From NCBI GenBank assembly GCA_049700215.1, contig JBNAVT010000006.1, positions 1 to 64,000 of the forward strand: DNA of 64,000 nt, written 5' to 3'. Position 1 is the first letter of the stretch, and every line of letters starts with the position of its first letter. Below, piece by piece: positions 2,950-59,257 of this stretch. The position numbers and the translations under genes are program-made. This DNA comes from Thermoproteota archaeon. Lineage in GTDB: Archaea > Thermoproteota > EX4484-205 > JAAOZP01. Below the pieces are notes generated by a model. The model searched no databases. It was given only the letters and a program-made list of their open reading frames with translations, and was not told the origin of the DNA.

Positions 2950-3062
2950 TGGTTTATTTTTAAAGGCTTCTAACTATTGGAACCGCTTCCTCCATGAACA
3001 GGGCTTAAGACCCTTTTATCCCCGCCTTCAACATTCTCCTCGCCGACGTTTCCACGTGTAAC

Positions 3063-10978: not shown

Positions 10979-11011
10979 CTGGAACAGGCCCAAGGCTTAA
11001 AGCGCGCGCTA

Positions 11012-11470: not shown

Positions 11471-11526
11471 ATGGAGCATTGAGGAGCGGGGAAAATGTTT
11501 AAAAAATTCTTGACTCAGGGTAGGTC

Positions 11527-13876: not shown

Positions 13877-14950
13877 TCAGACTGTTTGAACTGATGATGC
13901 TTTAAATGCCAAGTAGACTTTCAAGCCTATATTGAGTTGCATTTCATTGAATGATCGTTTAGTTATTTGAACTATGAAGTTTTTGTTTTCTGCAACCTTT
14001 ACCTTTAGCTTTACCACATGCCCTATTTCGGATATTTGAACTATTTTGCCTTCGAAGGTGTTTCTCGCGCTTGAGATGAGTGGGTGAGTTGATAAGATGA
14101 TGTCTTCAGGAGGCACATGCAACGTTACATCCCCAGCTTTCTTAAACGCAGCTTCCACCCGTAAGCCGCTTCCGATGTCCACAATAGATGTGCCTTCCGC
14201 TGTGATTTTTGAAACACCGTGGAAAACGTTCTCCAGCTCGGCGAAGCTTTTAATGGATCTCGACGATTTTTCGAAAAGCTCTTGAAAGGTGCCTGTCAGC
14301 TCTATTTTCCCCTCATTAAGAAAAGCCAGTCTATGTGCTAGATTTTCTGCTTGAAACATGTTATGGGTCGTCATAATTATTGTGGTTTTCCTTTCCCTAT
14401 TAACGTAGGAGAGAGCTCCCTCAACTATGGAGACATTTCTCGGATCGAGGTTTGCGGTGGGTTCGTCAAGAAGTAGCAGTTCAGGCCCTGTCACTAACGC
14501 TTGGGCTATGGCTACTCGCTGGGCTTCCCCGCCAGACAAAGCCAAAGCATTTTTGCGTTCAAACCCGTTCAGCTGAACTAATTCAAGCGTCTCTTTCACC
14601 TTTTGCTTAATATCGCGTTCGTTTTCACCCTTAACTTTCAATGGATAAGCCACGTTATCAAAGACGCTCATGTTGAAGAGAACTGTCTGCTGGAAAACCA
14701 TCCCTATTTTTCTGCGCAAAGCAACCCTGTCCTTCTTTGAAGAATAATCTACGATTTGCCCGTCGAACAATACTCTGCCACTTGTGGGTTCCTCAAGCAG
14801 ATCAATAATCCGTAAGAGCGTGGTTTTTCCAGCTCCATTGGGGCCTACAAGAACAAAAAGCTCTCCATTTTTAACGCTAAGGTTCACGCCCTTTAAAACT
14901 TGTCTCCCGGAGTATTCCTTACAGAGGTTTTGCACTTCTAAGGTGGGCAA
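13877..14950 (-). CDS. tupC: Tungstate ABC transporter ATP-binding protein with TOBE domain
   Basis: GPNGAGKTT, LSGGEAQR, LLLDEPT; C-terminal TOBE; operon context. Confidence 0.85.
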   Translation of the reverse strand: MPTLEVQNLCKEYSGRQVLKGVNLSVKNGELFVLVGPNGAGKTTLLRIIDLLEEPTSGRVLFDGQIVDYSSKKDRVALRRKIGMVFQQTVLFNMSVFDNVAYPLKVKGENERDIKQKVKETLELVQLNGFERKNALALSGGEAQRVAIAQALVTGPELLLLDEPTANLDPRNVSIVEGALSYVNRERKTTIIMTTHNMFQAENLAHRLAFLNEGKIELTGTFQELFEKSSRSIKSFAELENVFHGVSKITAEGTSIVDIGSGLRVEAAFKKAGDVTLHVPPEDIILSTHPLISSARNTFEGKIVQISEIGHVVKLKVKVAENKNFIVQITKRSFNEMQLNIGLKVYLAFKASSVQTV

Positions 14951-15637
14951 TTATCTCCTCGCCCCCTTAAATTGAACAATAGTTAACGCCAGATTTATCG
15001 CAAAAGCTATGAAAAGTAAAATGGCACCGAGAGTAAGCGCCATGGTAAAGTTGCCTAACTCTGTTTCAACAACTATGGCTGTTGTCAATGTCCGCGTCCA
15101 CCATCTAATGTTGCCCCCAGTAATCATTATGCCACCGACCTCAGATATCGCAGCGCCGAAGGCCACAATGATCGAGGTTAAAACGCCCATGCGGGCTTCC
15201 CTCAACACTAGCCATGCTGCTTGGGTTTCAGTCGCGCCAAGCGACAGTGCTCTTTCCCGGATTGATTCTTCAACGCTTCCCACAGCAGACATAGTCACGC
15301 CGATGATTATGGGAACAACCATTATCAGCTGCGTTATTATCATGGCTGTAGGCGTATACAATAGTGCTAACCAGCCGAGAGGACCAGACGCGGTCAACAG
15401 CAGGTAAACTACGAGACCCACAACGACGGGTGGCAAACCCATAAAAGTGTTTATTACGCTTTTCAGCATGACATCCATAAAGCGTATAAGCGTTCTCTTC
15501 CCTCTGAACCGCCTAAAACCCAGAAACGTTCCAACAGGTATGCCTATCGAAGCGCCAATTAAGACAGCTGTCCCTGAAACTCTCAGAGAGAGTAACGTTA
15601 TGCCCAAGACCTCCTCCCAAAAACTGTTTTCAATCAC
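14951..15637 (-). CDS. tupB: Tungstate ABC transporter permease
   Basis: TFMGLPPVVVGL, FGAAISEVG, GGNIRWWTRTLTTAI. Confidence 0.92.
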   Translation of the reverse strand: MIENSFWEEVLGITLLSLRVSGTAVLIGASIGIPVGTFLGFRRFRGKRTLIRFMDVMLKSVINTFMGLPPVVVGLVVYLLLTASGPLGWLALLYTPTAMIITQLIMVVPIIIGVTMSAVGSVEESIRERALSLGATETQAAWLVLREARMGVLTSIIVAFGAAISEVGGIMITGGNIRWWTRTLTTAIVVETELGNFTMALTLGAILLFIAFAINLALTIVQFKGARR

Positions 15638-15683
15638 CTGTTCTCACCCGCCGTAACCGTCAAGCTTCAAAAAGACCGTGTTT

Positions 15684-16622
15684 CTAGGGGTTTTGGGCAT
15701 CATACCACGCGATTTCCTCCTCTTGATCCTGAAATCCTAATTCACGGGCTTTATTAAAGTCTCGGGCTATGGGTTTGAACAGGGTTTCGCCTTCTTTTTT
15801 GAAGTTTGCTATAAGGCTTTGCCCTTCCTCTGAAATCATCCATTTGGTCAGCATAAGTGCTCCCTTATAGTTTCTTTGAGGATACTTTTCTGGGTTAACG
15901 AGGATTACAGCATATGGATTCAGTAGGATCACGTCGCCTTCAACCAGAGCCTTCAAGCTTTTCAATTGGTTTTTGAAGGATAGCCATGTAGCCCTATCTG
16001 TAAGCGTGTAAGCCTTTTTCTCGTTGGCCATGCGCAGCACTGCGCCCATCCCAGCTCCAGCCTCTATGTACCATGCTTGAGTCTTGTTGGAAGACTGTAT
16101 TCCAAGTTTTTCCCATATGCTTAGCTCCAGCATGTTTGTGCCAGACTTGTCCGCACGCGAAATAAACACCGTGTTACCTTTGGCACCCTCTTCTGCAATC
16201 CTGTGGAAGGCTTCTGTAGCGTTGCCTAAACTGTTTATTCCAGCAGGATCTTCCGTTGGGCCGATTATCAGGAAGTCGTTATACATTACGCCTACTCTAT
16301 GAACACCGTAAGTGCTGTTTACGAACTCAAGCTCAAGCTGCCTTGAATGCACGAGGACAAGGTCCGCATCTCCTCTCTTGGCGGTTTCTATGGCTTGGCC
16401 GGTGCCAACCGAAACTATGTGGACCTCAACGTTATATTTTTCCTGAAAGATCGGCATTAAATAGTCCAGCAATCCGGAATCGTAGGTGCTTGTGGTCGTC
16501 GCCAACACGATGATCAGCTTTCGAGCGCTCACATAGCGTTCGTAGGCGAACGCGCCGGCAACAGCTGCCACAAGCATGAGGATGGTAATCATGACTTTCA
16601 ACGACCTCGTTCTCAAATCCAA
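15684..16622 (-). CDS. tupA: Tungstate ABC transporter substrate-binding protein
   Basis: TupA signature ATTTSTYDSGLL, plus GTGQAI and SRADKSGT. Confidence 0.93.
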   Translation of the reverse strand: MDLRTRSLKVMITILMLVAAVAGAFAYERYVSARKLIIVLATTTSTYDSGLLDYLMPIFQEKYNVEVHIVSVGTGQAIETAKRGDADLVLVHSRQLELEFVNSTYGVHRVGVMYNDFLIIGPTEDPAGINSLGNATEAFHRIAEEGAKGNTVFISRADKSGTNMLELSIWEKLGIQSSNKTQAWYIEAGAGMGAVLRMANEKKAYTLTDRATWLSFKNQLKSLKALVEGDVILLNPYAVILVNPEKYPQRNYKGALMLTKWMISEEGQSLIANFKKEGETLFKPIARDFNKARELGFQDQEEEIAWYDAQNP

Positions 16623-16970
16623 TGTTATAGTGGGAGAGACCTCCTAATATAAATTGAGTGTTCAAACCCGGAAGCGAAATGGCTACCGATGCGGAAACTT
16701 GAAATTTCAGCAACTTGCCAAAAACCGCTTAACCCAGCTTTCTCAGGCAAGTGGCGCCGGAGGCTAGGTTTACACCCCCGTTTGAACCCTTAATCTGTAG
16801 AGAGATTTAAAAGACCTGTAATCCTTAGCGATCTGAAGCGTAGAAGTATTAAAAACCCGGCCCTTTCTAAAAACAGCCAAAACAACCCAATCCATCATTA
16901 ACTACCGGTTCCTAAATTGCAATTACGGCATATTTATTTTGCGCTGTCGCATCCAAATGCCCCCCATACC

Positions 16971-19391
16971 TTAAAGCTGGAGTCTTTTGAAAACCAGATA
17001 CTTGAAGGGGTCTATGATTCCGAGGGTGAATAAAGCTGAAAAGACTAGAGCAAAGAGAACATAATGCGGGGGAAGCGACGGGATGATTATGCCGTATATG
17101 CCTAATAATGTGAATCCAACAAGAGTGGCAATAATGGAGATGATAAGGCCTTTACCTGGTTTTGAAGACCAGAAACGCCTTCTTTCCCTAACGATGTATA
17201 CCCTAAATTGGCTGCAAAAGACAAGTGTTAACATTATAAATGTCTGGAGTTTTCCCCATTCAAGATGGAGGTAGATCCGACCTATTGCAAGCGCGACAAC
17301 GCCTTCAACGGACATTAACAAACCGATTACGAGAGACGCTAAAGCAATATTCTTGACGTTCCACTTGTTCGGGTTGCTTGTATGCTTCACGTTATCAGTG
17401 GCTAGTGACATTGTTGCAAAATCATTTGCGAAGATAAGAAGAGTCATGCCTAAGAGGCTAAGGATAATGTCGTGTAACCAGAAAAAGCCCACGACCAGTA
17501 AACCAACAAACTGTATTGTTTTAGTAACCTTGTTTACGACCCATGTTAACATCCGCTGATATATTTGCCTACTAATCCTTATTGCGCTTACCATTACATT
17601 TACACCTTCCTCGGTCAAAACTACGCTGGCAGACGCTTTCGCAACATCGGTTGAATTGCTCACGGCGATTCCCATCTCCGCTTGTTTAAGAGCGGGTGCG
17701 TCATTAACGCCGTCGCCAGTCATCCCCACCACATGCCCTTTAGACTGCAAAAGTTTCACAATCTCATACTTGTCCTCGGGATACACCTCAGCAAAACCAT
17801 CATAGGTCTCAACAACTTTAGCTTTTTCTACTTCGTTTAATGCCTTAAGTTCCGCTATGGGAATAATTCTCTCACCAATAGATGCTTGACGAGCTATTTC
17901 TTTAGCAATGCTAATATTATCGCCTGTAAGCATCATGGGCTTTATTCCAAGCCCTTTAATCTTCTCTATCACGGCTTTTGAGTCTGGTCTTATGGGATCA
18001 GCTAAAGCCAAAAGCCCCACAAGCTGGAGGTTGTTGAAATCCTCGTTTTCAGATTTAGCAACAGCCAAGGTTCTATATCCTTTTTGTGATAACTTGTCTA
18101 GCATTATGTTTGCTTCCTGACAGACGACATCAGCGTTTTTACATAAGTTCAAAATTGTTTGCGGCGCACCTTTTACAGCCTTAAAGCGCTTTCCATTGCC
18201 CTCAACTATGGATTCTGATCTTTTAATGGATGGATTGAACGGGGTGAAGGAAACTCGCTTATACGAGTCTAAATTAACCCCTAAAGATTTTGCATAACCT
18301 ATGACTGTTAAATCTATTATGTCTTTGCTTTCCCCTTCAGAAGCCAATGCAGCTGTCAACGCAACGTCTTCCTTCCCATATGGGGAGAATGGAATTACTT
18401 CGACAACCGATAACTTATTTTGAGTTATCGTGCCAGTTTTATCCAGACAGAGTACATCTATGGAAGCCGCGTCTTCAATTGAGTCAAGCCTTGTCACGAG
18501 GACTCCTTCTTTCGCGAGCTCCATAGCACCAACAGCTTGAACTATGGCGAGCACCGCTGGCAGCGCAACTGGAACAGCCCCCATAAGGAAAATAACAGTA
18601 AACGTCAATATTGACAAAATCCCCATATTCAGCAGCATGGCGTAAGCCGAAGTCAATATTAATGCTACCAAGCCGAAATACATCATATATTTGGTTATGG
18701 CCATCATTATTTCTTCTTGATGAGATTTCGGTTTAGCTTTCTTAACCAACTCGGCTGTTCGTCCAAAATACGTGTTCACTCCAGTGTTAACCACAACGCA
18801 CTTGGCCTCCCCCTGCGTAACAATTGAGCTTGAATAAACAATGTCTGATGAGCGCAAATTTACCGGTAAAGATTCTCCTGTTAAGGCTGACTGGTCAACG
18901 GAAATCTCTCCGCTAATTACCTTGGCATCTGCAGGTACCAAGTCACCTAGGCCTACGAGTATGATGTCTCCTGGGACAATCTCCCTAGCATCTTTAACCG
19001 CCCATTTTCCTTCACGCAAAGCCTTCGCCTTTACAGCAAGCCTCTTCTTCAAAAAATTAAGCACTTTTTGCGAGCGACTTGAATGCATAAAGCCTATAAC
19101 AACGTTTATGGTAAGTAAAACGAAAATTATGACAGCCTCGATGTAGTGCCCCAGCACGCATGAAAGCAGAATCGCTAGCTCCAGCAGCCAAGGCATAGGC
19201 CCCCAATAACGTGAGAAAAACTCAACCAGGGGATTTTTCTTTTCTTCTATTATCTCGTTGTATCCGAACTTTTCTATCCGGTTTTTTGCTTCAGACTCTG
19301 TAAGTCCAAGCATAGATGTCTCTAGCATCCTAAACGTTTCTTCTATAGAGAGCTGCTTAAATTCGGCTGTACTCTTTATCTTTGCAAACAT
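16971..19391 (-). CDS. P-type IIIA plasma-membrane proton-efflux ATPase
   Basis: DQSALTGES, AVPVALPA, CLDKTGTIT, KGAP, TGDGVNDAPALK, FANDF in TM6; ATG at 19391 preferred. Confidence 0.92.
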   Translation of the reverse strand: MFAKIKSTAEFKQLSIEETFRMLETSMLGLTESEAKNRIEKFGYNEIIEEKKNPLVEFFSRYWGPMPWLLELAILLSCVLGHYIEAVIIFVLLTINVVIGFMHSSRSQKVLNFLKKRLAVKAKALREGKWAVKDAREIVPGDIILVGLGDLVPADAKVISGEISVDQSALTGESLPVNLRSSDIVYSSSIVTQGEAKCVVVNTGVNTYFGRTAELVKKAKPKSHQEEIMMAITKYMMYFGLVALILTSAYAMLLNMGILSILTFTVIFLMGAVPVALPAVLAIVQAVGAMELAKEGVLVTRLDSIEDAASIDVLCLDKTGTITQNKLSVVEVIPFSPYGKEDVALTAALASEGESKDIIDLTVIGYAKSLGVNLDSYKRVSFTPFNPSIKRSESIVEGNGKRFKAVKGAPQTILNLCKNADVVCQEANIMLDKLSQKGYRTLAVAKSENEDFNNLQLVGLLALADPIRPDSKAVIEKIKGLGIKPMMLTGDNISIAKEIARQASIGERIIPIAELKALNEVEKAKVVETYDGFAEVYPEDKYEIVKLLQSKGHVVGMTGDGVNDAPALKQAEMGIAVSNSTDVAKASASVVLTEEGVNVMVSAIRISRQIYQRMLTWVVNKVTKTIQFVGLLVVGFFWLHDIILSLLGMTLLIFANDFATMSLATDNVKHTSNPNKWNVKNIALASLVIGLLMSVEGVVALAIGRIYLHLEWGKLQTFIMLTLVFCSQFRVYIVRERRRFWSSKPGKGLIISIIATLVGFTLLGIYGIIIPSLPPHYVLFALVFSALFTLGIIDPFKYLVFKRLQL

Positions 19392-19680
19392 ATTTCTTGA
19401 AACCAGTAAGCTATATAGTACCGTTATATAAGTATAGTTTTTACAAGAGAGCACGCGCTATCTGTTTTCGGTCCTTATACAGAAGTACTCGGTGCAACAA
19501 CATATTGCAAGCATAGGCGAGTTTTTAAGGATATGCTGCGAGGCTTATCAATGATATTGCAGCAGGCTATCTGGAGTCGAGTAAAGGATATTGACCCTTG
19601 ACTTTTACAGGCTATGTGCTTAACTTGTTGGCAGTTCCTTTGCTTGCTTTTTCTAGACGATGGCAGCTAGTCACACTCTT

Positions 19681-19953
19681 GATATTCTTAGAATAGGCAA
19701 CAAGTTTGAGTCTTGGATGTAGAAGCTTATCCGTTTGAGGGGGGAGACGTTTGTTGATGTTGGAGCGCGTGTTGGAAAGTATTCTGTTCAGGTTGCCAAA
19801 AGTTTTCACGCTTCACTGTCGTGGCCGTCGAAACATGCCCCGTAACCTTCGAGGTTCTACACAAGAACGCGGTCTTGAATAGGCTAGAGAGTGTTAGATC
19901 GCGTAATCTTGCTGCGTGGAACTGTGGAGGCCATGTCAGGTTCTATGTTGGAG
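19681..19953 (+). pseudogene. FkbM family methyltransferase fragment
   Basis: FESWM*KLIRLRGETFVDVGARVGKYS, frameshift, then VVAVETCPVTFEVLHKNAVLN...NLAAWN; truncated at AGCGCGCGCTA (19954). Confidence 0.7.
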
Positions 19954-20139
19954 AGCGCGCGCTAATACTTAGGATATGGAATATACGTTGGAAGGAAATG
20001 ATTGGCCAGTATCTTAATATTTAAGGTTGGGAAAATATTTCAAGGGTTCCTGGAAAATGCTTTAAGAGGGGCGATAAAGCACCTAAAAGGAGAAAATAGC
20101 AAAGATGATCCGAATTCCTCTTTCCCTAGGAATACGGAG

Positions 20140-20223
20140 CGCCGGGGAAGGGATTCGAACCCCTGCGGCCCGCATGGGCCACTGGCTCTCAAGGCCAGCG
20201 CATTACCGCTCTGCCACCCCGGC
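20140..20223 (-). tRNA. tRNA-Ser(TGA), intronless, CCA not encoded
   Basis: GCCGGGG/CCCCGGC acceptor stem, CTGGC-CTTGAGA-GCCAG anticodon arm, long variable arm, GGTTCGAATCC T-loop, discriminator G. Confidence 0.95.
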
Positions 20224-24545: not shown

Positions 24546-24662
24546 ACATATTTAGAAATCTAGTGGCAGGAACGCGTATGCTATATTTATCAAGAAACTT
24601 GTTACTCAATAGAACCAGATAAAGCGCGCGCTAAAGAGGTAGCCGAGATACGTGGAAATAGA

Positions 24663-26500
24663 GTGGTGAACAATGTAGATAAAGTTGCATTCATAAGCGC
24701 GCGCGCTGCTGAGAATGGGCTTATGCTTTTCGAAACCTACCTTGACGCTAGGAAAGATTATGGTAAGGAGATTGCTGACACCTTTTTAAACAGCGTCGCT
24801 AAGCATCCTGAGCTGTTAAGCCTCTGGAGCGGAGCCGTGGAGGGCGGGGTCGCAATATTCATCGGAGCATCCCATGAACCGGATAGGATATCTTTACCCG
24901 AGGGTATTCGCGAGAGTGTTTACCGCGTCATCATACAGGATTCCGAGGGCGAGAACATCCTGATAGACGGCTTCAGGAGGATCGGCAGCGGGCAGGAGAC
25001 AATCCGCTTCTCCTCTGAGGACACTGCCGGCAGGATAAGGGGAGGCGAGAAATACCTGGTTATTCTTAAGGCTGCAACCCCGGGTGACTTTCTCGAGAAA
25101 TACCCGTCGAGGTTCGTTGAGGCAGCTGGTGGAAACGCCTATCTGGTGGATACTGAGAAAAGCAGGGTCGTCGAGGGATTGGTTGGGGAGCTGGATGAGT
25201 ACGGGGGCTTCGCTTTCATCAGGTTCATGGTTACGGATGCTGACGGAAAACAGGTTGAGCTCAGGCTGACCCAGAGAGGGAGGCTGATGCTGATCTCCGG
25301 CGAAGGGAGAACCATGATAGGCGGGGTGGAGCTGAAAACCGTGTGGGACGATTCTGGAGGCGAGGTGGCTAGGCTCCTGTTCCTGCAGGAGGAGGGCTTA
25401 GACAGGTACGGTGGGATAATTGTTCTAAGCAGGAGGATTCCCTCGAGACCCGTGCTGCTCCTGAGCAACGAGGAGCACGTTATAGAGATAGAGCCAGACC
25501 AGAAATACCTTGATGTAAGCGGGATGCTTAAGAGAATCATTGGTGGCGAAGAATATTTGAGGCTCAGCAGGGAAATGGGCAGCGGGGACGCGGTCCTGGG
25601 GGTTGCTTACCTTAAGCAGGATGGTGAAATAGATTCCGCGTGGACCCAGAGCGCTGACGCGGAGTTCAAGATTAAGGAGGCTGAGGACGTGCTCAGCCTA
25701 ATTATCGTAAGGAAGAACGGGCTTAGCGCGGTGAGCCCAGACGGGGGTGTTAGAGCAGAGCTTTCCGGAGAGTACTTAAAGTTTTACGGCGTCAAGGGGA
25801 TGGGCGAGGGAGCCGCGTTCAGGGTGAGCGAAGCGGGTACGGCCGATTCTCGAGATGACTCTGCCGAGCGGCGAGGCAATCCTGTTCCGAGTTGACGTAG
25901 CCGGAGACGGTAAAACAGTATCCTCGAAGCTGGCCTTAGCAGTAGAAAGGTATGCGCCTGATATAAACCTGGTTGAATACTACGGCGAGCTAAAGATTAT
26001 GCTGAGCGAGCGGTCAAGCGTTCGAGTATACTCTGAGAGACTTGATGGTCGTCGAGTATGAGGACAGCAGGGGAGTCCATAGAACTGCGGTTGGCTTAAG
26101 CGAACCCCTCCCGGATAAAGTGTTGAAGGAACCTCAACACGTCGCCACTAAGCTGTTCACGAAAAGCCTCTTAGAAAAACTGGGATATAGGATTCTGGAG
26201 GAGGAAAAACACTTTGAATGGCAAGGTGAGGATGTATTCTTTGATTTTCATGCAGAAAAACCGGATGAAAAAGTGGCAGTAGTCGAATGTAAGCATGGTG
26301 ATGAAACCGTCAGTAAAATAGATCAAGCCGACAAATATTTTAGAATTGCTAGAGAGAACGGTTGGAGGCTGCTTTATAGTTTTCTGAATGCTCCTCAAAC
26401 CTCTGAAGCTAAAGAGTTACTTAACCACTTAATTGAGCTTATGAGGCAGTATCCAGACACAGTGGAGGTTTTTATAAGTGGAGAGAAATATGGGAGGTAG
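24663..26500 (+). pseudogene. Frameshifted large protein ending in a PD-(D/E)xK nuclease domain (polymorphic-toxin-like)
   Basis: Three overlapping ORFs (24663-25895, 25855-26061, 26042-26500); C-terminal E...FDFHAEK...VVECKHG motif. Confidence 0.6.
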
Positions 26501-28688: not shown

Positions 28689-28858
28689 AGTAAAAAATTG
28701 GTATTAGTAGCATATAAATTTTTCTAGTAGCGCGCTAAAATGCTTTTTCAATTCTCTTTACCAAGACTTTATAGAACAGAGCTTTACGCTCAGCCTGTCT
28801 TCCACAAACCTTCTGAAAGACGACTCCATTATCCGCGCGAAGTTTCGCAGAGCTGGCT

Positions 28859-29770: not shown

Positions 29771-30024
29771 TTCTTGTAAAAGGCAGCTTTTATAATAGGG
29801 TTATATTAAGCTTTCCCACGAACAGTTAGGCGCTACTGGTTATTTTTTCTCCGGTTATTGAATATTGTGCTAATAAACCAATTGACGGTTTTAGCGCGCG
29901 AAGATTCTAGCATCAATTCTGTTTAAGATGCTTATTATCCTCTAACGATTCTTAGCAAATCCCACTTTACATCAAACTTTTGCGGTAAGTCCTGTCCATG
30001 TTTTTGATGCAGCCAGCGCGCGCG

Positions 30025-30648
30025 CTATTTTTGAGAACTGATTTCCCTTAAGATCTTATCCTTAATCTTTCTGACTTCCCTGAGGTTTTTTATGCCGAGA
30101 TACTCGAACTCGATCCTAGCAGACCTTATGATCTCCAACAGCCTTCTTTCATACTCCTCAACTCTAAACTTTCTAACCAACTGTTTATAATGTTTCCAAC
30201 TCACCTTACCGCTTTTAGCTAGGCAGATTATGTCCACTCTGTCTTTCTGCCCCTTTACGCTGTTCCTTCTTTGCAGCTCAGCCTGCTGCTTCAATATTAG
30301 CAGTATCTCAGGCTTGGGAATCCTAAAATTTTCGATTCTAACCGTGTTTTGGAGGATCTCCTCTGGTGGAATAGTGAATTCCGAATAATATGGAACATAA
30401 ATGTCTATAGATACTCCCTCCACTTCAGCCTGGTATTTTTTCAGAGACTCGTTCTTTTGAATTCCGATGCTTGTTTTAAGCCTGGTTAAATCCTTGAAAT
30501 CAACTATGATGTCTACATCCTTGGATTTTATGGCTTTCGTCAAAAAGTAGACGGCCCATCCGCCTATCAAAACGAAATCGATTTCCCTCCTTAGCTCCTG
30601 CAGTATTTTGAAGCTTCTGTCTATTGCTATCTCATTCCAGAACTCCAT
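30025..30648 (-). CDS. Nucleotidyltransferase, AbiEii/MenT-like (type IV TA toxin candidate)
   Basis: LIGGWAV...SKDVDI and a C-terminal KGQKDRVD motif. Confidence 0.7.
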   Translation of the reverse strand: MEFWNEIAIDRSFKILQELRREIDFVLIGGWAVYFLTKAIKSKDVDIIVDFKDLTRLKTSIGIQKNESLKKYQAEVEGVSIDIYVPYYSEFTIPPEEILQNTVRIENFRIPKPEILLILKQQAELQRRNSVKGQKDRVDIICLAKSGKVSWKHYKQLVRKFRVEEYERRLLEIIRSARIEFEYLGIKNLREVRKIKDKILREISSQK

Positions 30649-31219: not shown

Positions 31220-31709
31220 ATTTCTGTTCTAAATGTATTTTCTTTATAAAGCTTTCGACAAAATTCGAAAATACTATGGAAACATTATTTTAAACGACAA
31301 GGAGCGCGCGCTAGAGTTATTTTAGTTACGTATGCTTCTGAAGCTGCTGACGAACCGGTTCTCAGGAAGGCAGTGGGAAAATTCGGATTATCGCCTAGCC
31401 TACTTAAAAGACTCGTTTCTACGACTTTTTTACGATGTTATTTTCACTCAGAAGACTGCTAGGCAGAAGATCTTCCTGCCTCTCAAACACATCGCGGCGA
31501 AAACTGTTTATCGACTTGAATAAACTGCTTGTAAAACATTCCTCCTATGAACCCCCGCGCGCTGAAGGAAGCTCTTGGTACGGTTGAGGGCGAACCCACG
31601 GTAATCCTTTAAGTTTCGTCGATCCCGGGGAAAAGACCCGAGATGCAGGGTGGACAAATACATGATTTTCATAACCTTAAAAAGGCAGCGCGCACGGCAC
31701 TAATTAAAA

Positions 31710-33482: not shown

Positions 33483-33827
33483 CCTAGTTAACAGTAGCCC
33501 GCGCTAGGATTAAGTTAATCTCACCGTCTAAAAATGATTCGTCGACCTTGCCAATAGATTATGATCAACATAAAGGAGCTCCCTGTGTCTAGAAGACAGT
33601 TCGAGAATGAAGCTCGGCATCTGGAATGGGCAAAGGGGACGCTGCTTAAGCAAGATTGTTGGAGGCGTTGACAACTGGGATGACGTGAGGCTGAACCCCT
33701 ACAAGCTTGCAAACCCTCGTAGAGAAGGCTTTGTAGGAAGAGACTTAATGTTAAAACTACTATTCAGAATAACTTTAGACCCAAGCTTAAAGAAGTCGAG
33801 ATGGCAGCTCATTTAACCTTTTAATTC

Positions 33828-34685
33828 TCACGCAACTGTCTTCTGCGCGCACTCATGCTCCGTGTTAATAGTTTTCGCAACTAGGTTCAACTCTGTCCAG
33901 GGACTGAACTGTTGTCTCGTAGCCAGGTTCCCATATGTTGCGACGGTTTCCCAACCTGCTTCCCTCAGCATTGATGCGAGCTCGCTTACGCTATAGACGT
34001 ATATGTCGAACACGATTCTGTCGATAAACCTCAGGTCGTCACCATTCTTCACATAGAAAGACCACGTGGTTCTAAGCCTAGAGGTGAGCGCATCCCATCT
34101 CGCTTCCTCAACTAGAACAATATCCTCATGAAGCGTGAATGATGAAGGGCAGAATCTCAGGTTTAGGGAATCCCTATGGACTGTCTCAGCTATGAACAGT
34201 ACCCCCCCTTCTCTTGTTAACCGTCTCGCCTGCTTGAAAACCGCGAGGTCTTCACTCTTATCGTAATAGCCTATTGATGTCCAGACGCTGGTTACTACGT
34301 CGAAACACGCATCCCTAGGCACAAGGCTGAGGAGTCTCCGCGCATCACCGCATATGAAGCTGGCCCTCTTGGAGACACCTAGCTCCCTCGCCCTCTCTCT
34401 AGCGTCTTCAATAAAAACGGGAGAAAAGTCTATGCCTACGGCTCTGAAACCTTTTTTAGCGAAGGATATTGCAACCCTCCCGTTTCCGCAGCAAAGATCC
34501 AGGATCCTCCCGCTTTCGATGTTGAAATCCTTAAGCAGCCTTATCATTCCGTCGACGAGAGCCTCTGTTTTAAGCCATCTCTCGTTCATAATTTTAAGAA
34601 AAAGATCGGCTCGCTCTATGAAAATTCTCCTAGTCCAGTCTTCCATGATTACTGGGGGAAAAACGCCTTCTGATTTAAAAAACAT
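33828..34685 (-). CDS. Class I SAM-dependent methyltransferase
   Basis: ILDLCCGNGR, GDAR, WTSIGYY. Confidence 0.9.
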   Translation of the reverse strand: MFFKSEGVFPPVIMEDWTRRIFIERADLFLKIMNERWLKTEALVDGMIRLLKDFNIESGRILDLCCGNGRVAISFAKKGFRAVGIDFSPVFIEDARERARELGVSKRASFICGDARRLLSLVPRDACFDVVTSVWTSIGYYDKSEDLAVFKQARRLTREGGVLFIAETVHRDSLNLRFCPSSFTLHEDIVLVEEARWDALTSRLRTTWSFYVKNGDDLRFIDRIVFDIYVYSVSELASMLREAGWETVATYGNLATRQQFSPWTELNLVAKTINTEHECAQKTVA

Positions 34686-36253: not shown

Positions 36254-36442
36254 GCGTGAAAAGGTGAAAGAAGGTTGGGAGAATCAGTCCCAAAGGAAAG
36301 AGTTAAGCCTTCTGGCCTGAAAACATGGATCATAATCTCAGCAATACTAATACCCCCAGTAGGATACTTCCTAAACCTGGTTATGCAGGGCTTCGGAGCC
36401 TGGTGGAACTACCCGTTAATATTCCCGTTGCCATTCTTCTGG
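36254..36442 (+). repeat. 189-bp exact direct repeat, copy 1 (copy 2 at 40508-40696)
   Basis: Base-by-base identity over 21 nt of leader and the first 56 codons; offset 4254. Confidence 0.92.
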
Positions 36443-38284
36443 CACATCGTAACATTCTACTTGCTGTCCAAGGTTTCTAAAAGTTTCAGGCTCTCTCCGC
36501 AGGAGCTAACCCTGTTCTTCGTAATCTGTTTCATAACTGCAGGTGGAATGTATGCCGCGTACGGGTTTGGTTATTGGACCACCTGCCCGCTTCCACACTG
36601 GAATATTGGCTTCGCTACCTCAGGATTAAACAGTGAGGCTTACCAAAGCGTCTTCTACGAGAAAGTTCCTCCCTTCATTGTTCCTAAAGACCCTGTGGTG
36701 ATGCGTGCCTTCTGGTATGGCGGAGCCTTCGACCTGGGTCCATGGCTGGTTCCAGCCCTATTCTGGATAGTCTGGGGAATAGGAGAGTTCATAGGAATGG
36801 CGATATGGGGCTACTTCCTGAGAAAACCTTTAGTAGAAACCGAGAAACTACCCTTCCCAGGCATAGCTCCTCACACATACCTTGTGAAATATTATATAGA
36901 AGAGGAGGAGGGCACTCCGATTCTTTTCAACTTTAGACTCAGGTTGACGAAGCTTTTCTGGATTGGCTTCGTAATAGGAATGCTTCTGGCGATTCCAGGT
37001 CAGGTGATAAACTTCTGGCCGCTGGCGTTCGGAGGCAACGCGCTTACTAACTGGCCGGTAAACCTCCTAAGCATAACTGAGGGCCCATTACCCGGGGCCT
37101 TGACCTCCGGCAACCTTTACGTTACTGATGTTTTTGTAGCACAGTTCATACCTCTGGACGCACTAGTTACGGCGGTTCTCTACTGGTTTGTCTTCGGCGT
37201 AATCTATCAAACTTTGGCGGTTAGAACCGGTTTGGCTCCATTCACGCCCGGAGCGGGCAACGAGGACCAATATCCTTGGAGCCTGGGGCCGTTTAAATGG
37301 ATGCAGTTTTCCTGGATAGGACTCTCCTTAGGCTTGGCTGCCACCGTCGTAGTTAGATATAGGAGTCACATTCTTGAGATCTTCAAGAAGGGGTTGAGGG
37401 GTGAAAAGGCTGAGGACGATGGGGTTTCCTACAGACTCCTCGCCTGGGGAGCCTTAGGCACGTACCTGCTTCAGGTTGTCCTGTTCGCCGTTACGGGTTC
37501 GCCGATAATCATGGCTATAATCATACCCCTGTTCTTCATATTCTACATGTTCGGATGGACGAGGATGATGGGTGAGGTTGAAGAGTTCATGCCGAGCGTA
37601 GATACTTATTCATACCTAGTGTTTGACGCTGGCACTTTCCTAGGGCAGTGGGGCCCGAGGCCATCTCCAGGAGCTTTCAACACGATACTGATGTACTACA
37701 GCTATGGCACAGGGGTTAGAATGAGCTCCATGGCGATGCACCACGGATTCAAATCCTACAAGATGGCTTACGAGACCAACACTTCAGGAAAGGAAGTTCT
37801 CTACATCACCATAATATCGCTGCTCTCAACACTCGTCGCGGTCTACTTCATATGGCCATGGTTCATGACGAGCTTCGGAGGATACTCGAGGATCAACTCG
37901 ATAAGCTACAACGACTGGAGCCTCCCAGGGATATATAACTGGACATACGGAACTCCTCCTGCCCTAACCGTGGAAGAAACCTGGGGCTATGCCATACTCG
38001 GAATAATCGTCACACCAATAATCTACTTCTTAAGAGCCAGGTTCACATGGTTCTTCATAAACCCAATAGGCATGCTGATGCTTCCAAACGGATGGTGGCC
38101 AACCTGGCTAGTAGCCTTCGTCATAAAGTACGCGGTCCTCAAGTTCGGCGGCTCCAGAGTGTTCGAGGAAAGATGGCTGCCAATGGCAACGGGAGTCTGC
38201 ATAGGCTTCGGCGGTTTAGTGCTCTTCGGCTCCTTGATAACTTTCTTCGGCACAGCTTTGCCTGCGTGGTTAGCTAGGTTCTAG
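36275..38284 (+). CDS. OPT-superfamily / DUF6785-like polytopic transporter, paralogue 1
   Basis: 669 aa, many TM helices, LSPQEL, ETEKLPFP, WFFINPIG, KYAVLKFGG motifs. Confidence 0.78.
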   Translation: MGESVPKERVKPSGLKTWIIISAILIPPVGYFLNLVMQGFGAWWNYPLIFPLPFFWHIVTFYLLSKVSKSFRLSPQELTLFFVICFITAGGMYAAYGFGYWTTCPLPHWNIGFATSGLNSEAYQSVFYEKVPPFIVPKDPVVMRAFWYGGAFDLGPWLVPALFWIVWGIGEFIGMAIWGYFLRKPLVETEKLPFPGIAPHTYLVKYYIEEEEGTPILFNFRLRLTKLFWIGFVIGMLLAIPGQVINFWPLAFGGNALTNWPVNLLSITEGPLPGALTSGNLYVTDVFVAQFIPLDALVTAVLYWFVFGVIYQTLAVRTGLAPFTPGAGNEDQYPWSLGPFKWMQFSWIGLSLGLAATVVVRYRSHILEIFKKGLRGEKAEDDGVSYRLLAWGALGTYLLQVVLFAVTGSPIIMAIIIPLFFIFYMFGWTRMMGEVEEFMPSVDTYSYLVFDAGTFLGQWGPRPSPGAFNTILMYYSYGTGVRMSSMAMHHGFKSYKMAYETNTSGKEVLYITIISLLSTLVAVYFIWPWFMTSFGGYSRINSISYNDWSLPGIYNWTYGTPPALTVEETWGYAILGIIVTPIIYFLRARFTWFFINPIGMLMLPNGWWPTWLVAFVIKYAVLKFGGSRVFEERWLPMATGVCIGFGGLVLFGSLITFFGTALPAWLARF

Positions 38285-39547: not shown

Positions 39548-40060
39548 CTATATACTTTTCCTCCTGTACTCCTCAATCAGCTTTTCATCAATCGGGTAAA
39601 CACCGTGCTTCCTTGCCAGTTTCAACATTAGCAGGTAGTTCGACGGTTTCACAGCTGGATGAATACTGTTACTCGATGCTATGATGTGCCCTCCGCCTGG
39701 GGAGGCCTTTGCGATTGTTTCTTTTACTGCTTCTTCAACTTCCCACTAACTTCCGAAAGTAAGAACATAGGAGCAATCAACATTTCCAACAACAGCTATC
39801 CTTCTATCATATTTTTCCTTTACCTCTCCTATATCCATTCCAGCTATTGGCTCTAGTGGGTCAAGGGCGTCGATTCCAGAGTCTATGATCATACCTATGA
39901 TTGGCCAAAGGTTTCCGTCGGTATGTTTTATAAACGGTATTCCATGCCTCTTCACGGTTTGAACAGCTCTTCTTAAGTAGGGTAACACAAACTCTTCAAA
40001 CTGTTTCCCAGACATAAGCGGCGCCTTCCTGTTAGCATAGTCGTCTCCAGTCAACACCAC
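39548..40060 (-). pseudogene. C-terminal remnant of a uroporphyrinogen-decarboxylase/MtaA family protein
   Basis: GDDYA...HTDGNL...DPLEPIAGMD...GNVDC...FGS*WEVEEAVK...GGGHIIASSNSIH; 5' end cut at TAGCGCGCGCTA (40062-40073). Confidence 0.85.
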
Positions 40061-40061
40061 G

Positions 40062-40073
40062 TAGCGCGCGCTA
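40062..40073. repeat. Perfect palindrome TAGCGCGCGCTA, representative of a dispersed repeat family
   Basis: AGCGCGCGCT at 11001, 19954, 24623, 31303, 40063 and 52843; (GC)5 forms at 24696 and 30015; variants at 3063, 19450, 28728, 29892, 31556, 31687, 33495, 49515, 56913 and 59245. Confidence 0.85.
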
Positions 40074-40507
40074 AGGTTCCTCTCTAGCCAGAGCCTTCAA
40101 AAATCTCTCTCTAGAATTCATGTTCGCAGCCTTCATCATCAAGTATAAAAACTTTTATAATGGTTCTATTTTCGATTCTGGACAATAATGCCTGCTTAAA
40201 AAGTCTCTTGAAGTTAAAACGGGCTTGAAAGGCAACGGCTTCTGCGAAACGTCACCATTTTTCAAGAAAACCGATTTGAAACTAAATTAGACTAATCGTT
40301 ATTATTCGACCTTTTTATGAATACGAAAAGTCGAGGGGCTAGTGGAAATCCTGTTTTGTAACCACAGCCAGCTTTAACATATTATTGTCAACACATATCT
40401 CCTTTTCGCTTCCCGTAAGAAGCGGCTTGCTTCAGATTATCGACAAAAATATAATGGGGAAAAACAATGGGAGTAAGCTTTATATGTTTGTAAAATTGCG
40501 TCGTAAC

Positions 40508-40696
40508 GCGTGAAAAGGTGAAAGAAGGTTGGGAGAATCAGTCCCAAAGGAAAGAGTTAAGCCTTCTGGCCTGAAAACATGGATCATAATCTCAGCAATA
40601 CTAATACCCCCAGTAGGATACTTCCTAAACCTGGTTATGCAGGGCTTCGGAGCCTGGTGGAACTACCCGTTAATATTCCCGTTGCCATTCTTCTGG
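40508..40696 (+). repeat. 189-bp exact direct repeat, copy 2
   Basis: Identical to 36254-36442. Confidence 0.92.
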
Positions 40697-42538
40697 AATC
40701 TGATAATAATTTACCTGCTCTCTAAACTCTCCGGAAGGCTCAGGCTCTCCCCGCAGGAGCTAACCCTGTTCTTCGTAATCTGCTATATCACTGCTGGCAG
40801 TTACTATGCTGCACAGGGAATAGGCTACTGGACTACTACGCCAATAACAAATTGGAGCATCGCACATGTAACAACAGGTCTAAACACAGAAACATACAAA
40901 ACGGTTTTCTACGAGAAAGTTCCGCCTTTCCTGGTGCCAAAAGATCCGATTGTGATGAACGCGTTCTGGTACGGTGGCGTCTTCAATCTGGATCCATGGA
41001 TCGTGCCAATTCTCTTCTGGATAGTCTGGTCAGTCGTTGAATTCTCAACCTTATGGTTCTGGGGCACTATGCTTATAAAGCCATTAATGGAAGTAGAAAG
41101 ACTACCGTTTCCATGGGTTATGCCAGTAAGCTTCATGATAAACAATTTCACCTCTACGAGTAATGGGAAGCCAAACCTGTTCAACCTGCGAATCGGCAGC
41201 ATAAAGTTCTTCTACATAGGGCTGGTCATAGGCATGCTGCTTTCAGTACCCGGACAGGTTATAAACTTCTGGCCGCTGGCGTTCGGAGGCAACGCACTAG
41301 CCAACTGGCCGGTAAACCTCTTGAGTATAACCTCTGGCCCACTGCCAGGAGCGCTGCTCGTCGGCAATTTTTATGTTATCGATGCTTTTTCCATAGGACA
41401 GCTGATCCCGTTGGACGTGTTAGCAACGGCTACTCTCTGGTGGTTCATCTGGGGGGTTCTCTTCCAAACAGCGGCTGTCAGACTGGGGATAAACCCATTC
41501 ACACCTGGCGCTGGAAATGAGACTGCATATCCATACTCGCTCGGCGTATTTAAGTGGGCTCAGTTTGACGCTCTTGTTTCTGTTGGCATAGCCTTATACG
41601 TAGTTTTCAAGTACTACAAGTATATTCTGGAAGTTCTTAGAAAAGGCTTTTCCGGGGAAGGCGGAGACGTAGGTGGGATTTCATATAGGCTTATGGCTTT
41701 CGGCGCCTTAGGAACGTTACTGATACAAATTGTACTCTTCGCCATAGCTGGAACACCTATAGTGATGGCAGTATTCATCCCGTTATTCTATGTTTTAATC
41801 ATGTTCGCTTGGATAAGAATGATGGGGGAGCAACACTTCTATCCTTATGGTGGCTCTTACCAAGGTATAGTTTTCGACGTAGGTACTTTTCTCGGCCAAT
41901 GGGGTGGAAGACCATCTCCAGAAGCATTCAACGCCATTTTGATGTACACCTCTCTAGGGTTAGCGGGTTCCAGGATGAGTCCGATGAACATACACTGGGG
42001 CTTCATGTCTTTCAAAATAGGTGAGGCGACTAATACAAGCTACAGGGAAATACTCTACATCGCGTTGATCTCTATAGTAACTACTGCTGTTGCTGCCTAC
42101 TTCATATGGCCATGGTTCATGACCAGTTTCGGCGGGTACTCTAGGATCAATTCAATACAATATGACATTTGGATGCTGCCAACGATTTACAGTTATACTT
42201 ACGGTACGCCACCGGCTGTAACCGTTGCGGAGACATGGATCTACACTATAGTAGGCACGATCTTCGTCTTCGCATGCTATACTCTTAGGTCAAGGTTCAG
42301 GTGGTTCTTCATAAATCCAGTAGGTCTAATGATGCTGCCCGAGGGCTTCTGGCCCGCTTGGCTCGTAGCCTTTATCGTAAAATATGCTGTGCTTAAATTC
42401 GGTGGTTCAAGGGTGTTCGAAGAAAAGTGGATGCCGTTAGCGATGGGGATTGGTATAGGCTTCGGCGCTCTAGTGCTGTTCGGAGCTTTGATAACCTTCT
42501 TCAACGTATCGTTACCAACGTGGCTCGGCCGATTTTAA
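40529..42538 (+). CDS. OPT-superfamily / DUF6785-like polytopic transporter, paralogue 2
   Basis: 669 aa, same motifs as paralogue 1 (EVERLPFP). Confidence 0.78.
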   Translation: MGESVPKERVKPSGLKTWIIISAILIPPVGYFLNLVMQGFGAWWNYPLIFPLPFFWNLIIIYLLSKLSGRLRLSPQELTLFFVICYITAGSYYAAQGIGYWTTTPITNWSIAHVTTGLNTETYKTVFYEKVPPFLVPKDPIVMNAFWYGGVFNLDPWIVPILFWIVWSVVEFSTLWFWGTMLIKPLMEVERLPFPWVMPVSFMINNFTSTSNGKPNLFNLRIGSIKFFYIGLVIGMLLSVPGQVINFWPLAFGGNALANWPVNLLSITSGPLPGALLVGNFYVIDAFSIGQLIPLDVLATATLWWFIWGVLFQTAAVRLGINPFTPGAGNETAYPYSLGVFKWAQFDALVSVGIALYVVFKYYKYILEVLRKGFSGEGGDVGGISYRLMAFGALGTLLIQIVLFAIAGTPIVMAVFIPLFYVLIMFAWIRMMGEQHFYPYGGSYQGIVFDVGTFLGQWGGRPSPEAFNAILMYTSLGLAGSRMSPMNIHWGFMSFKIGEATNTSYREILYIALISIVTTAVAAYFIWPWFMTSFGGYSRINSIQYDIWMLPTIYSYTYGTPPAVTVAETWIYTIVGTIFVFACYTLRSRFRWFFINPVGLMMLPEGFWPAWLVAFIVKYAVLKFGGSRVFEEKWMPLAMGIGIGFGALVLFGALITFFNVSLPTWLGRF

Positions 42539-49172: not shown

Positions 49173-49539
49173 CTATGTTGTCGGAAAACAGTTGTAGCAC
49201 GCGTGCTCCAAAACGGGTTCCAACAGGGGGGAAAGTCTATTTATGAAGTTCTGCATCTCGCCTGGAAGAGGTGCATAGACTGGTGTCGCTAACACAAGTA
49301 TATCAGCCTCGCGCAGCTTGGGGTAAAGCAACCGCATATCGTCAGAAATGATGCAATCCCCAGGCTTATCATACCTGCAAGAAAAGTCTCCGATGCAAGG
49401 CCTGATGTTGAGGCATTTTACATAGAAAAGCTCGACTGTCGCGCCTGCCTCCCTCATGCCGTTGAGAAACGGTTCCATGATCATTGTTGTGTCACTATTC
49501 TCCATGCGGGTGCGAGCGCGCTGCTACTACTTTGGTCAA
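49173..49539 (-). pseudogene. Flavodoxin-like / NADPH-dependent FMN reductase fragment
   Basis: MTKVVA, frameshift at AGCGCGCT, then RMENSDT...PCIGDFSC...DDM...LATPVY; 3' truncated. Confidence 0.7.
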
Positions 49540-52792: not shown

Positions 52793-52880
52793 CCTTACGT
52801 CATATAATATGAAAATATCATACTATATTAACTTTACGCAGAAGCGCGCGCTACGCTTGGTGAAGCGGGGGGACCTCTAA

Positions 52881-56014: not shown

Positions 56015-56920
56015 TTACATTATTTTTAGAATCTCCTTAATCCGGCATATGCAAGACTCCTCGGCTTTCCGCGCTTCACGAAGCGCTTCCGTCTTCGCAT
56101 CGTCGGCAAGCTCCTCGCCTCTAGCCTTGTCAAGCAGCCTAGCAATTTTTCCGTATTCACTACTCAGCTCTCTTGCTGTTTCTGAAACAGCGCCTTTCAT
56201 TTTTCAACGGGATCTCCATGAAGCAGCTGGACGCCATTTCCATGCACTCGGCTCATACTGTTCCGTTCCACCAGTCCCCGTGGCTCGACCCTAAACCCTA
56301 GTTCACGGCTTTCACCCACGTGTCATAAGCCAAGACCAACATAATAGTGCTTGAACATCCATTTTCCAGGATTCTCAACCATGTCAAGCGCGCATGACGG
56401 TTCTTTCATCAGCCTTCTCCGTCTTACTGAAGCTGAAGAAGGTCACATGAGTTTCATCCCCAGTTCCTTCCACATTTCAAACGTGAGAGTCTTGCATGTA
56501 ATAGTTAGGTCGACGGAGGGCCACGGCTGCTTCAATAAGAAACGCTTGTCATCATACCCTGTGATCAACTGGCTCTCCATGTTTAGCATGGAGCAGGGCA
56601 TGCATGCGTCAATGCTCCTCCTCAGAACGCTCTCGACCCTCCTACGCTCCTCTAGAGTACTCTTGGCATGGAAGAACCCGAGGTCCGTCATACCTATACC
56701 AAGGTTCTCCACCAGCCTGTAGAAGGTTTCATAGTTCCAAGCATATGGACCGCTTGGACAGATCTGGAGAGGGGAGAGAGGTTCTCCCTTGAAGTTCCAA
56801 AACACTCTTTTTATCATCCAGCTTTTAAGATCGTAGCTTGCGTGAAAGCTGACAACGGGCTTACTTTCGTCAAACGCCTTATACGATGTCCACTTGTAGC
56901 CTGCGATGAGGAAGCGCGCG
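56015..56920 (-). pseudogene. Fragmented, possibly chimeric hypothetical gene(s)
   Basis: Short ORFs 56443-56817 and 56015-56200; the reading frame begins at the GC palindrome (56913-56921) with no start codon. Confidence 0.45.
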
Positions 56921-56953
56921 CCAGCTACGACGGCTAATGCAGCACGTATCCCG

Positions 56954-59223: not shown

Positions 59224-59257
59224 CAACCGTATCTTAATGGTTTGAGCGCGCGCGGTC

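Follow-up and report, generated by a model that had tools for sequence, protein, structure and literature searches.

A short GC palindrome at DNA joints in a lineage of hot-spring archaea, with break repair as its possible source

A 64,000-nucleotide stretch of DNA from a Thermoproteota archaeon (positions 1 to 64,000 of contig JBNAVT010000006.1; hereafter the window) contains a broken gene of the URO-D family whose remnant stops beside a perfect GC palindrome, and the locus raises the question whether the palindrome was there before the gene broke, serves as a regulatory site or was written when the DNA was rejoined. An earlier note, made from the sequence alone, had connected several truncated genes of the window with this motif and proposed that it is created or used at the deletion junction itself and is not a transcription-factor site. 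We addressed this question by fetching the syntenic regions from five relatives and aligning them to the window, which is contig C6 of genome G000 (2.09 Mb in 85 contigs). Genes were called as open reading frames (ORFs), and the junction checks rest on assembled contigs, not raw reads. The close-relative loci, located via a neighbouring gene, come from records titled Candidatus Brockarchaeota, Thermoproteota, Bathyarchaeota or Nitrososphaerota archaeon, whose contig names follow the styles of several assemblers. The broken gene consists of three parts.

40062-40073, no strand: TAGCGCGCGCTA unit sealing a ~490-bp deletion in a URO-D gene (alignment A1 with genomes G002, G006 and G010)
39557-40060, minus strand: C-terminal URO-D remnant, amino acids 194-361 of the 369-aa G002 protein (tblastn, Pfam PF01208, translation)
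40065-40154, minus strand: first 30 codons of the URO-D gene, in a frame that differs from that of the C-terminal remnant (tblastn)

Codons 31-193 of the gene, about 490 bp, are replaced by the unit in the window. The two coding parts are offset (40154-40060 = 94, not divisible by 3), and the C-terminal remnant, which aligns to positions 209-295 of the 346 in the Pfam URO-D profile, has an extra in-frame stop at 39746-39748. The gene is intact in G002, G006 and G010, which are 85-91% identical here, and the G002 protein is a 369-aa member of the family (Pfam URO-D, E 3e-35). Alignment A1 gives the window as ...CACCACGT followed by AGCGCGCGCTA and AGGTTCC...; in G002, G006 and G010, the corresponding flanks enclose about 485-500 bp of coding sequence, and neither deletion end shows the motif or a part of it. 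The proposal that the motif is created at a deletion junction in mid-gene is thus borne out at this locus, where the intact alleles are motif-free, and the remnant does lie where the earlier note had placed it, directly beside the motif. A 3148-nt contig from run X1, possibly the source sample, and a 536-nt contig from run X2, a different sample and study, both span the junction with 0 differences. A contig from X5, representing a roughly 90%-identical relative, has 501 nt instead of 16 at 40057-40074, and one from X4 diverges from the window at 40074; all four runs are labelled hot springs metagenome. Because independent contigs bridge the junction and relatives carry the long allele, we conclude that the junction is real DNA and that the intact form is ancestral. 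The URO-D locus is itself flanked by paralogous 669-aa genes at 36275-38284 and 40529-42538 (about 72% DNA identity), of which the relatives have two to three copies in the same array.

The palindrome is not confined to this junction. At up to one mismatch, TAGCGCGCGCTA has 7 matches in the window against 0.07 expected, a number reached by none of 100 shuffles, and AGCGCGCGCT, its inner 10-mer, has 15 matches, falling on 13 distinct places, where 2.23 are expected; for GCGCGCGC, the count is 13 and the expectation 0.74. Exact copies of the 10-mer lie at 11001, 19954, 24623, 31303, 40063 and 52843, length variants of the form A(GC)5T at 24696 and 30015, and variants differing by a single transition or transversion at 19450 and 33496. 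Taken by itself, the 8-mer AGCGCGCT does not exceed chance (2 in the window vs 1.31 expected, with 41 of 100 shuffles reaching 2), and the site at 49515 is therefore on weak ground. Across G000, AGCGCGCGCT has 118 copies and is tied for the commonest 10-mer, and the reversed word has 1. Maximal (GC)4 runs number 166 against 10 for (CG)4 and maximal (GC)5 runs 51 against 4 for (CG)5, and 118 of the 166 (GC)4 runs have A..T flanks. Outside these 118 copies, the left base is T in 70 and the right base A in 69 (both in 35, neither in 14), and there is no conservation among them beyond this outer T/A. Copies of TA(GC)nTA for n = 2 to 6 number 22, 10, 35, 9 and 2; those with n = 2 lie inside ORFs in 19/22 cases, like the background, and the longer ones in 1/10, 6/35 and 1/9. 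Palindromes with another phase or other flanks, at n of at least 3, occur in 0-1 copies each. The unit is the 12-mer TAGCGCGCGCTA, often one base short on a side and varying in length by one GC step.

Its distribution is uneven along the genome and among genomes. Only 19 of the 118 copies lie within ORFs of at least 120 aa, though such ORFs span 82% of the genome, so that 84% of copies are outside them; on the repair-scar account set out below, which we hold at even odds, selection would let the scars stand in intergenic DNA and dead genes. The 10-mer is present 118 times in G000, 88 in G008, 70 in G002, 33 in G009, 32 in G007, 18 in G006, 16 in G010 and 6 in G013, with 0-3 copies in the nine remaining congeners; in nine genomes of the class that belong to other genera it ranges from 0 to 9, much like the reversed control there; the seven motif-rich species genomes (16-118 copies) have 0-3 copies of that control. 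The abundance of the unit is a property of real DNA, over-represented lineage-wide in one subclade of a hot-spring archaeal genus. Half-units are not enriched in G000 (TAGCGC observed/expected ratio, O/E, 1.12 after masking of GC tracts) and, since they are not in excess, copies must rarely be split. Nor does G000 avoid GCGC-type restriction sites (O/E 0.90 for GCGC and 0.85 for AGCGCT). TAGCTA and TAGCGCTA were considered as short forms of the unit series and rejected, since both lie mostly in ORFs like the background. TAGCTA is, on its own account, the most over-represented 6-mer of G000 after GC-tract masking (337 copies, O/E 1.7; 338 unmasked), with about 80% of copies in ORFs, and is seemingly unrelated to the junction unit.

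We then compared one genome pair more widely, setting G000 against ~597 kb of its nearest relative G002, about 27% of that genome, sampled as the first 20 kb or less from each of 40 further contigs; the best alignments were chained and covered 439 kb. This comparison yielded 16 events in which the unit of one genome stands opposite ordinary sequence without the motif in the other, from 0 to about 1750 bp long. The losses were 0, ~4, ~4, 5, 6, ~19, ~19, 20, ~70, 122, ~165-198, 298, 320, ~490, ~1100 and 1750 nt, a continuous spectrum that fits variable resection at single breaks. In about 18 of the 51 gaps that separate collinear blocks, one genome has a (GC)≥3 tract at a border. Clean large indels, defined as one allele of at most 25 nt and the other of at least 100 nt, numbered 15 after exclusion of one probable N-gap, and in 5/15 the unit is the short allele: the URO-D locus, C29:7192, C16:10769, C17:19799 (a decayed copy) and G002 L034:12286. 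If the degenerate filler at 3054 in the window is included, the count becomes 6/15. The long alleles are 320 nt at C29:7192, 122 at C16:10769, 298 at C17:19799 and, with G000 as the long form, 1750 at L034:12286, and in all five unit-bearing indels there is no motif at either end of the long allele. Outgroups hold the long allele for three events; at C29:7192 it is found in G010 and G007 and partly in G006 and G008, and at C17:19799 in G009, G010 and G008.

The unit is not limited to deletions, being found also at joints of mosaic accessory DNA and as replacements of 4-70 nt. At C4:31517 it is a pure 10-bp insertion without target duplication. It replaces ~4 nt at G002 L011:3803, ~4 at 30015 of the window, 5 at C29:13474, 6 at C7:25220, 20 at C4:33283, ~19 at C4:72970, ~19 at C1:53563 and ~70 at C16:17917. 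One dead gene, an intact ORF of 492 aa in G002, has three units within 170 nt, and between them fragments of 41 and 51 nt of the original gene are kept in order. The host often provides the outer T or A, or GC, at the border, which amounts to 0-2 nt of microhomology with a TA-ended unit; at C29:7192, for example, ...CTTA is followed by GCGCGCGC and then by TAATG..., so that the unit stands between host TA dinucleotides. Nine copies of 10-12 nt lie inside alignments of G000 with G002, and 0 are intact in both genomes, 7 being absent from the other genome and 2 shared but decayed in G000. The unit is recent, species-specific and decaying by point mutation. Two loci from this comparison stand apart. 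A small GNAT acetyltransferase gene (loci L081, G009:C18, and L045 1181-1502) is deleted with a unit in G000 and has been shortened without one, independently, in G009 and G008; in G010 the same locus has a TAGCGCGCGA-type tract at another border. In G000 C69, at about 1150-1210, a tRNA-like gene is longer than in G002 by a 16-nt insert, which is probably a one-species intron and creates AGCGCGCT by chance.

If the unit marks joints, then homology with relatives should tend to end where it lies. Counting homology ends only where they are not locus ends, we obtained 102 ends in 51 clusters for the window against its relatives, and for 7/15 motif or variant sites such an end was no more than 12 bp away; random placement gave 0.43 on average and never more than 5 in 20,000 trials. 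One of the 15, a 1-mismatch match at 45140, was dropped as ordinary coding DNA, identical in three relatives; without it, 6/14 real motif sites are within 0-12 bp of a homology end, about 0.4 being expected by chance. At the URO-D junction, the block ends are at 40060-40074. Most breakpoints of the window are unrelated to the motif, only 7/51 clusters being near one. Over the loci of six genomes, there are 16 A(GC)≥4T sites; homology ends at the motif in at least one comparator for 11, the remaining 5 have no alignable flank and 0/16 are read through by all comparators. In contrast, CGCGCG-phase sites, which are genic and many of them orthologous, are read through in 18/21 cases with 0 breaks. 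In the G000-G002 comparison, motif sites fall inside alignments in 7/38 cases (G002) and 15/67 (G000), against 74% and 64% of random controls, and at block edges in 7/38 and 9/67, against <2% of controls. The remaining sites of the window, with the island that holds two of them, are as follows, none with an assigned strand.

3054-3067: degenerate GC-rich 14-nt filler at a 941-bp deletion truncating a 463-aa gene; not a motif copy (alignment)
11000-11011: AAGCGCGCGCTA unit; G002 and G007 homology ends at 11001 (alignment)
13448-20137: low-GC 6.7-kb island, 175 bp in G002, abutting tRNA-Ser
19450-19459: AGCACGCGCT, a one-transition unit variant inside the island
19953-19964: GAGCGCGCGCTA unit near the tRNA-proximal island end, without comparator
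24622-24633: AAGCGCGCGCTA unit; the gap that holds it, between two conserved genes, is hypervariable
24696-24707: A(GC)5T unit; G002, G008 and G007 homology begins 2-4 bp later (24709-24711)
28729-28736: A(GC)3T (TAGCGCGCTA) in accessory DNA, without comparator
30015-30026: A(GC)5T replacing about 4 nt of G007 sequence; G006 homology begins at 30026
31302-31313: GAGCGCGCGCTA unit; G006 and G007 homology ends at 31296-31303
31555-31563: CCGCGCGCT, an old copy common to G002 and G008 (there AGCGCGCT)
33495-33506: TAGCCCGCGCTA, a decayed copy common to G002 (there TAGCACGCGCTA)
33844-33851: TGCGCGCA just before the start of G002 homology (33853); possibly a trimmed unit
49515-49522: AGCGCGCT where an FMN_red remnant breaks off on its N-terminal side; weak, without comparator
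52842-52853: AAGCGCGCGCTA unit 29 nt beyond the stop of a DUF4838 gene; relatives' homology begins at 52877-52879
56913-56922: AGCGCGCGCC, a unit trimmed on one side; G010 and G007 homology begins at 56926
59245-59254: AGCGCGCGCG; G002 has GAGGCGGA

Several of these had been named by the earlier note, whose observation was partly confirmed and whose interpretation is supported. At 31303 and 56913, where it had start-less frames begin, homology blocks end at 31296-31303 and start at 56926. It had a HEAT-repeat remnant starting at 11011; homology to G002 and G007 does end at 11001, but the HEAT label fell away, there being 0 Pfam matches at 11011-11500 in the 4 frames tried, and for the 477-nt stretch after 11011 no homologue was found at the same place in 4 relatives. 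An FkbM remnant was said to end at 19954, with a second motif copy at 19450. Both sites exist, 19450 as a 1-mismatch variant, but FkbM was not confirmed: support consists of sub-threshold methyltransferase matches (E 0.006-0.024), and the sites lie within the 6.7-kb island, without orthologous comparators. The remnant said to end at 3063-3074 corresponds to a real deletion, of 941 bp in a 463-aa gene, but the 14-nt junction is not a copy of the motif. At 49515, where the note had a flavodoxin frameshift, an FMN_red remnant lacks profile positions 1-11 and 98-152; AGCGCGCT there is, as above, not beyond chance.

Three of these sites differ in detail between genomes. At 31555, the left side has been replaced in G000, where homology begins at 31557; at 33496, G000 and G002 have each mutated differently at the same base; and at 59245, where G002 has GAGGCGGA, local expansion or insertion of the GC tract must therefore have occurred. 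The low-GC island has outer borders without the motif and adjoins the 3' end of tRNA-Ser (20139-20223); it holds a P-type ATPase-like ORF of 827 aa, and its placement resembles that of an integrative element, which it may be. The gap at 24546-24709 between two conserved genes is 162 bp in G000, 4.8 kb in G002 and about 3.1 kb in G008, and is a hypervariable slot with motif copies at different borders in the three genomes.

Taken as alignments of remnants with intact homologues, these data show added sequence and not a target site, since the intact alleles have neither the motif nor a partial copy of it. The motif-free ancestral alleles and the existence of a pure insertion lead to the same conclusion, and speak against a regulator as well. 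What stands at the joint is new sequence, whose phase, length and flanks are sharply fixed, and the data need a one-step event in which 0 to about 1750 nt are removed and a fixed palindrome is written. We propose, with a probability of roughly 0.5, that (T)A(GC)4T(A) was left as a repair scar by a lineage-specific form of break repair that writes a fixed self-complementary unit at the joint. Broken DNA in the one subclade would be rejoined without homology, with the joint gaining the 10-12-bp unit at the cost of 0 to about 1750 bp. Either the same short GC-rich tail might be added to both ends or a preformed palindromic duplex might be captured, after which TA or GC microhomology of 0-2 nt would serve to join the parts; an overlap of 8 bp, all of it G:C, could keep the synapse stable at hot-spring temperature. 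The lengths spread symmetrically around n = 4, which fits either slippage or the annealing of two self-complementary tails in shifted registers. Unrelated fragments in accessory regions appear to be stitched together by the same joining. That this amounts to a dedicated sequence-writing end-joining system in thermophilic archaea lacking Ku, in which a TA(GC)n tail or duplex tags the ends and foreign or ectopic fragments are stitched in, is a more tentative suggestion, which we think less likely than not; in that case the scars would be a legible record of each illegitimate joining event and would rank among the chief causes of gene loss and gain in the lineage.

Other ways of making the joints were considered. 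Templated copying from other motif copies was rejected, as shared flanks are not in excess genome-wide (7:6, 8:4, 9:1 vs control 7:7, 8:3), and a 23-nt flank shared by C6:40063 and C29:13475 is host sequence in both. The C29 gene was also tried as a URO-D paralogue and rejected, the 492-aa ORF of G002 matching 0 Pfam families. Recombination between two earlier copies is ruled out by the losses of 0-20 nt and by copy-free ancestral alleles. A simple k-mer scan found no CRISPR array in G000.

We searched 17 genomes of the genus for enzyme families that might account for the scar; all of them are incomplete (57-95%), so a zero count means not found. Ku (PF02735), the PolX thumb (PF14791) and RVT_1 (PF00078) were each matched in 0/17 and Prim-Pol (PF09250) in 1/17, G002. 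Y1_Tnp (PF01797), for which control genomes did match, and DDE_3 were matched in 0/17, giving 0/17 each for RAYT and IS630 transposases, and the ResT-TelK protelomerase (PF16684) likewise in 0/17. C5 methyltransferase (PF00145) was found in only two genomes, both motif-free. TnpB-like matches number 5, 0, 1, 1 (below cut-off) and 0 in G000, G002, G008, G003 and G004, and a DDE_Tnp_1 match was seen in G000 alone among those five. No family tracked the presence of the motif across the genomes searched. The five TnpB-like (Cas12f1-like_TNB) matches of G000 are on C60, C46, C49, C19 and C11; four are in frames of 104-219 aa, and most look truncated.

These searches are one of several points that weigh against the repair-scar proposal, having matched no family that could write the unit. 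A sharply fixed 12-mer is also hard to obtain from an untemplated polymerase, so that a template or a sequence-specific protein must be postulated. Among the clean large indels, 9-10 of 15 have no unit and show instead a 3-29 nt overlap or a few odd bases; since most unit-free indels show microhomology, writing the unit is not the sole joining route. The old copy at 31555, re-used as a junction, fits a breakage hot spot as well. Finally, the polarity of the small events rests on one comparator, and the comparison took in about 597 kb of one relative only.

Excision footprints of cut-and-paste transposons (Tc1/mariner-IS630, P element) are short, constant, near-palindromic and made of the two termini, and the unit could be the footprint or minimal form of an element with termini TAGCGC...GCGCTA, whose parent would be missing from the metagenome assemblies because repeats assemble poorly; insertion, deletion beside the element and excision would then leave its ends fused. 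The pure 10-bp insertion at C4:31517 and the favoured outer T/A would suit such an origin, as would the high motif density on short contigs, which suggests poorly assembled variable regions; no parent element with matching termini was found in G000, but metagenome-assembled genomes often lack repeats. We nevertheless consider it unlikely. TA is present on both sides in only 35/118 copies and on neither in 14, with no regular target duplication; self-BLAST of G000 gave no repeat family at 85% identity or more beyond a few paralogues; AGCGC inverted ends gave 1 match, consisting of two motif copies, and no paralogous family lies beside motifs. The DDE_3 and Y1_Tnp results speak against it too, as do TnpB-like genes, with 5 matches in G000 and 0 in the motif-rich G002, and flank losses of 4-1750 nt around an intact footprint are unlike imprecise excision. 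The palindrome might alternatively be a pre-existing fragile or recombinogenic site, Z-DNA-prone or the target of a nuclease or recombinase in the manner of HIP1, for which PMC4390886 speaks of evidence linking it to site-specific recombination. The old copy 31555 / L012:11452, common to G000, G002 and G008 with one side differing in G000, is what such a site would leave, and junction copies do cluster in hypervariable gaps such as 24546-24709. We regard this as improbable, because at least 5 large deletions have ancestral alleles that are free of the unit at both ends, and for these and 9 small events there was no Z-DNA-type tract before breakage, the copy at 31555 being the one case of re-use. 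Losses of 0-20 nt are not recombination between two copies, TAGCGC is at O/E 1.12, 0/9 aligned 10-12-nt copies are intact in both G000 and G002, and C5 methyltransferase was found in no motif-rich genome.

Two further readings fare much worse. As a palindrome with 84% of its copies intergenic, the unit could pass for a protein-binding regulatory or terminator site, but it lies within dead genes and where homology breaks off, lacks conservation among species that are 90-95% identical and keeps no fixed position relative to genes, and the window has no Rfam match except tRNA; a regulatory role is very improbable, in agreement with the earlier note, which had denied a transcription-factor site. 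An artefact of assembly or scaffolding, such as a constant word put in place of a gap, is hardly credible. A 10-nt unit does resemble a short scaffold gap, and G000 has about 15 N-runs elsewhere (1540 N), but the independent contigs from X1 and, in another study, X2 cross the junction with 0 differences, and the unit is abundant in 7 species genomes, in copies that vary in length, decay and are shared at orthologous sites; moreover, the close-relative records use different assembler-style contig names.

How broken chromosomes are rejoined in archaea without Ku is poorly known. If the repair-scar proposal is correct, a fixed word at the joint would make every joining event visible, so that rates, sizes and targets of illegitimate joining, gene decay and fragment capture could be measured in uncultured thermophiles. 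It would also point to an enzyme able to write or capture a set sequence at DNA ends, which would be novel in biochemical terms and might prove useful as a tool. Annotators of this lineage can take the word as a sign of pseudogenes and mosaic joints. A literature search that did not cover supplementary files found no description of such TA(GC)nTA joints.

Known systems resemble the unit in parts. Site-specific recombination sites (integron attC, dif, lox-like) would need a prior site in both partners, which the alleles here do not have, and the unit has no arms beyond the 12-mer. The alternating-CG centre of phage telomere sites may resemble the unit, and a telomere-resolvase (ResT/TelK) junction would call for a protelomerase, found in 0/17 genomes; telomerase-like or retron-like templated addition would call for a reverse transcriptase, also found in 0/17, and Ku-dependent non-homologous end-joining (NHEJ) with filler for Ku, found in 0/17, and a LigD/PolX-type polymerase, with the PolX thumb in 0/17 and Prim-Pol in 1/17. 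The footprint of Tc1/mariner-IS630 elements is, like the unit, a short constant near-palindrome, but the unit has its TA on both sides in 35/118 copies and its scars are tied to loss of host DNA. Repetitive extragenic palindromes with their mosaic elements and transposases (REP/BIME and RAYT) are also many-copy extragenic palindromes that can bridge deletions; REPs are longer, imperfect hairpins with a Y1 gene, whereas the unit is a perfect 10-12-mer in genomes with Y1_Tnp at 0/17. Thermophilic polymerases with nicking enzymes make short repeated palindromes without template in vitro, according to PMC10520511 (section 4.7), so that thermophile enzymes of this kind could be where the unit comes from; that side reaction yields long tandem arrays in vitro, whereas the unit sits at chromosomal joints, to which nothing connects the reaction, and no cognate nuclease was identified here. 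HIP1 of cyanobacteria, GCGATCGC, reaches more than one copy per gene according to PMC5861425 and is conserved according to PMC13756078. Like HIP1, the unit is a short GC-rich palindrome over-represented in one lineage (118 vs 1 for the reversed control), and for HIP1 a link to recombination has been reported; unlike HIP1, the unit lies 84% outside ORFs, arises as an indel and turns over fast. HIP1 is tied to cognate methyltransferases, and the motif-rich genomes gave no C5 methyltransferase match.

A further comparison is with the fillers that end-joining leaves elsewhere, namely N and P nucleotides, polymerase-theta-type templated insertions and captured DNA; their sequence is either random, taken from the neighbourhood or a palindrome of the local end. 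The unit shares with them extra nucleotides at the joint, a variable loss and 0-2 nt of microhomology. It differs, in genomes with Ku and PolX at 0/17, in having no copied flank and in being one fixed 10-12-bp palindrome at more than 100 unrelated sites.

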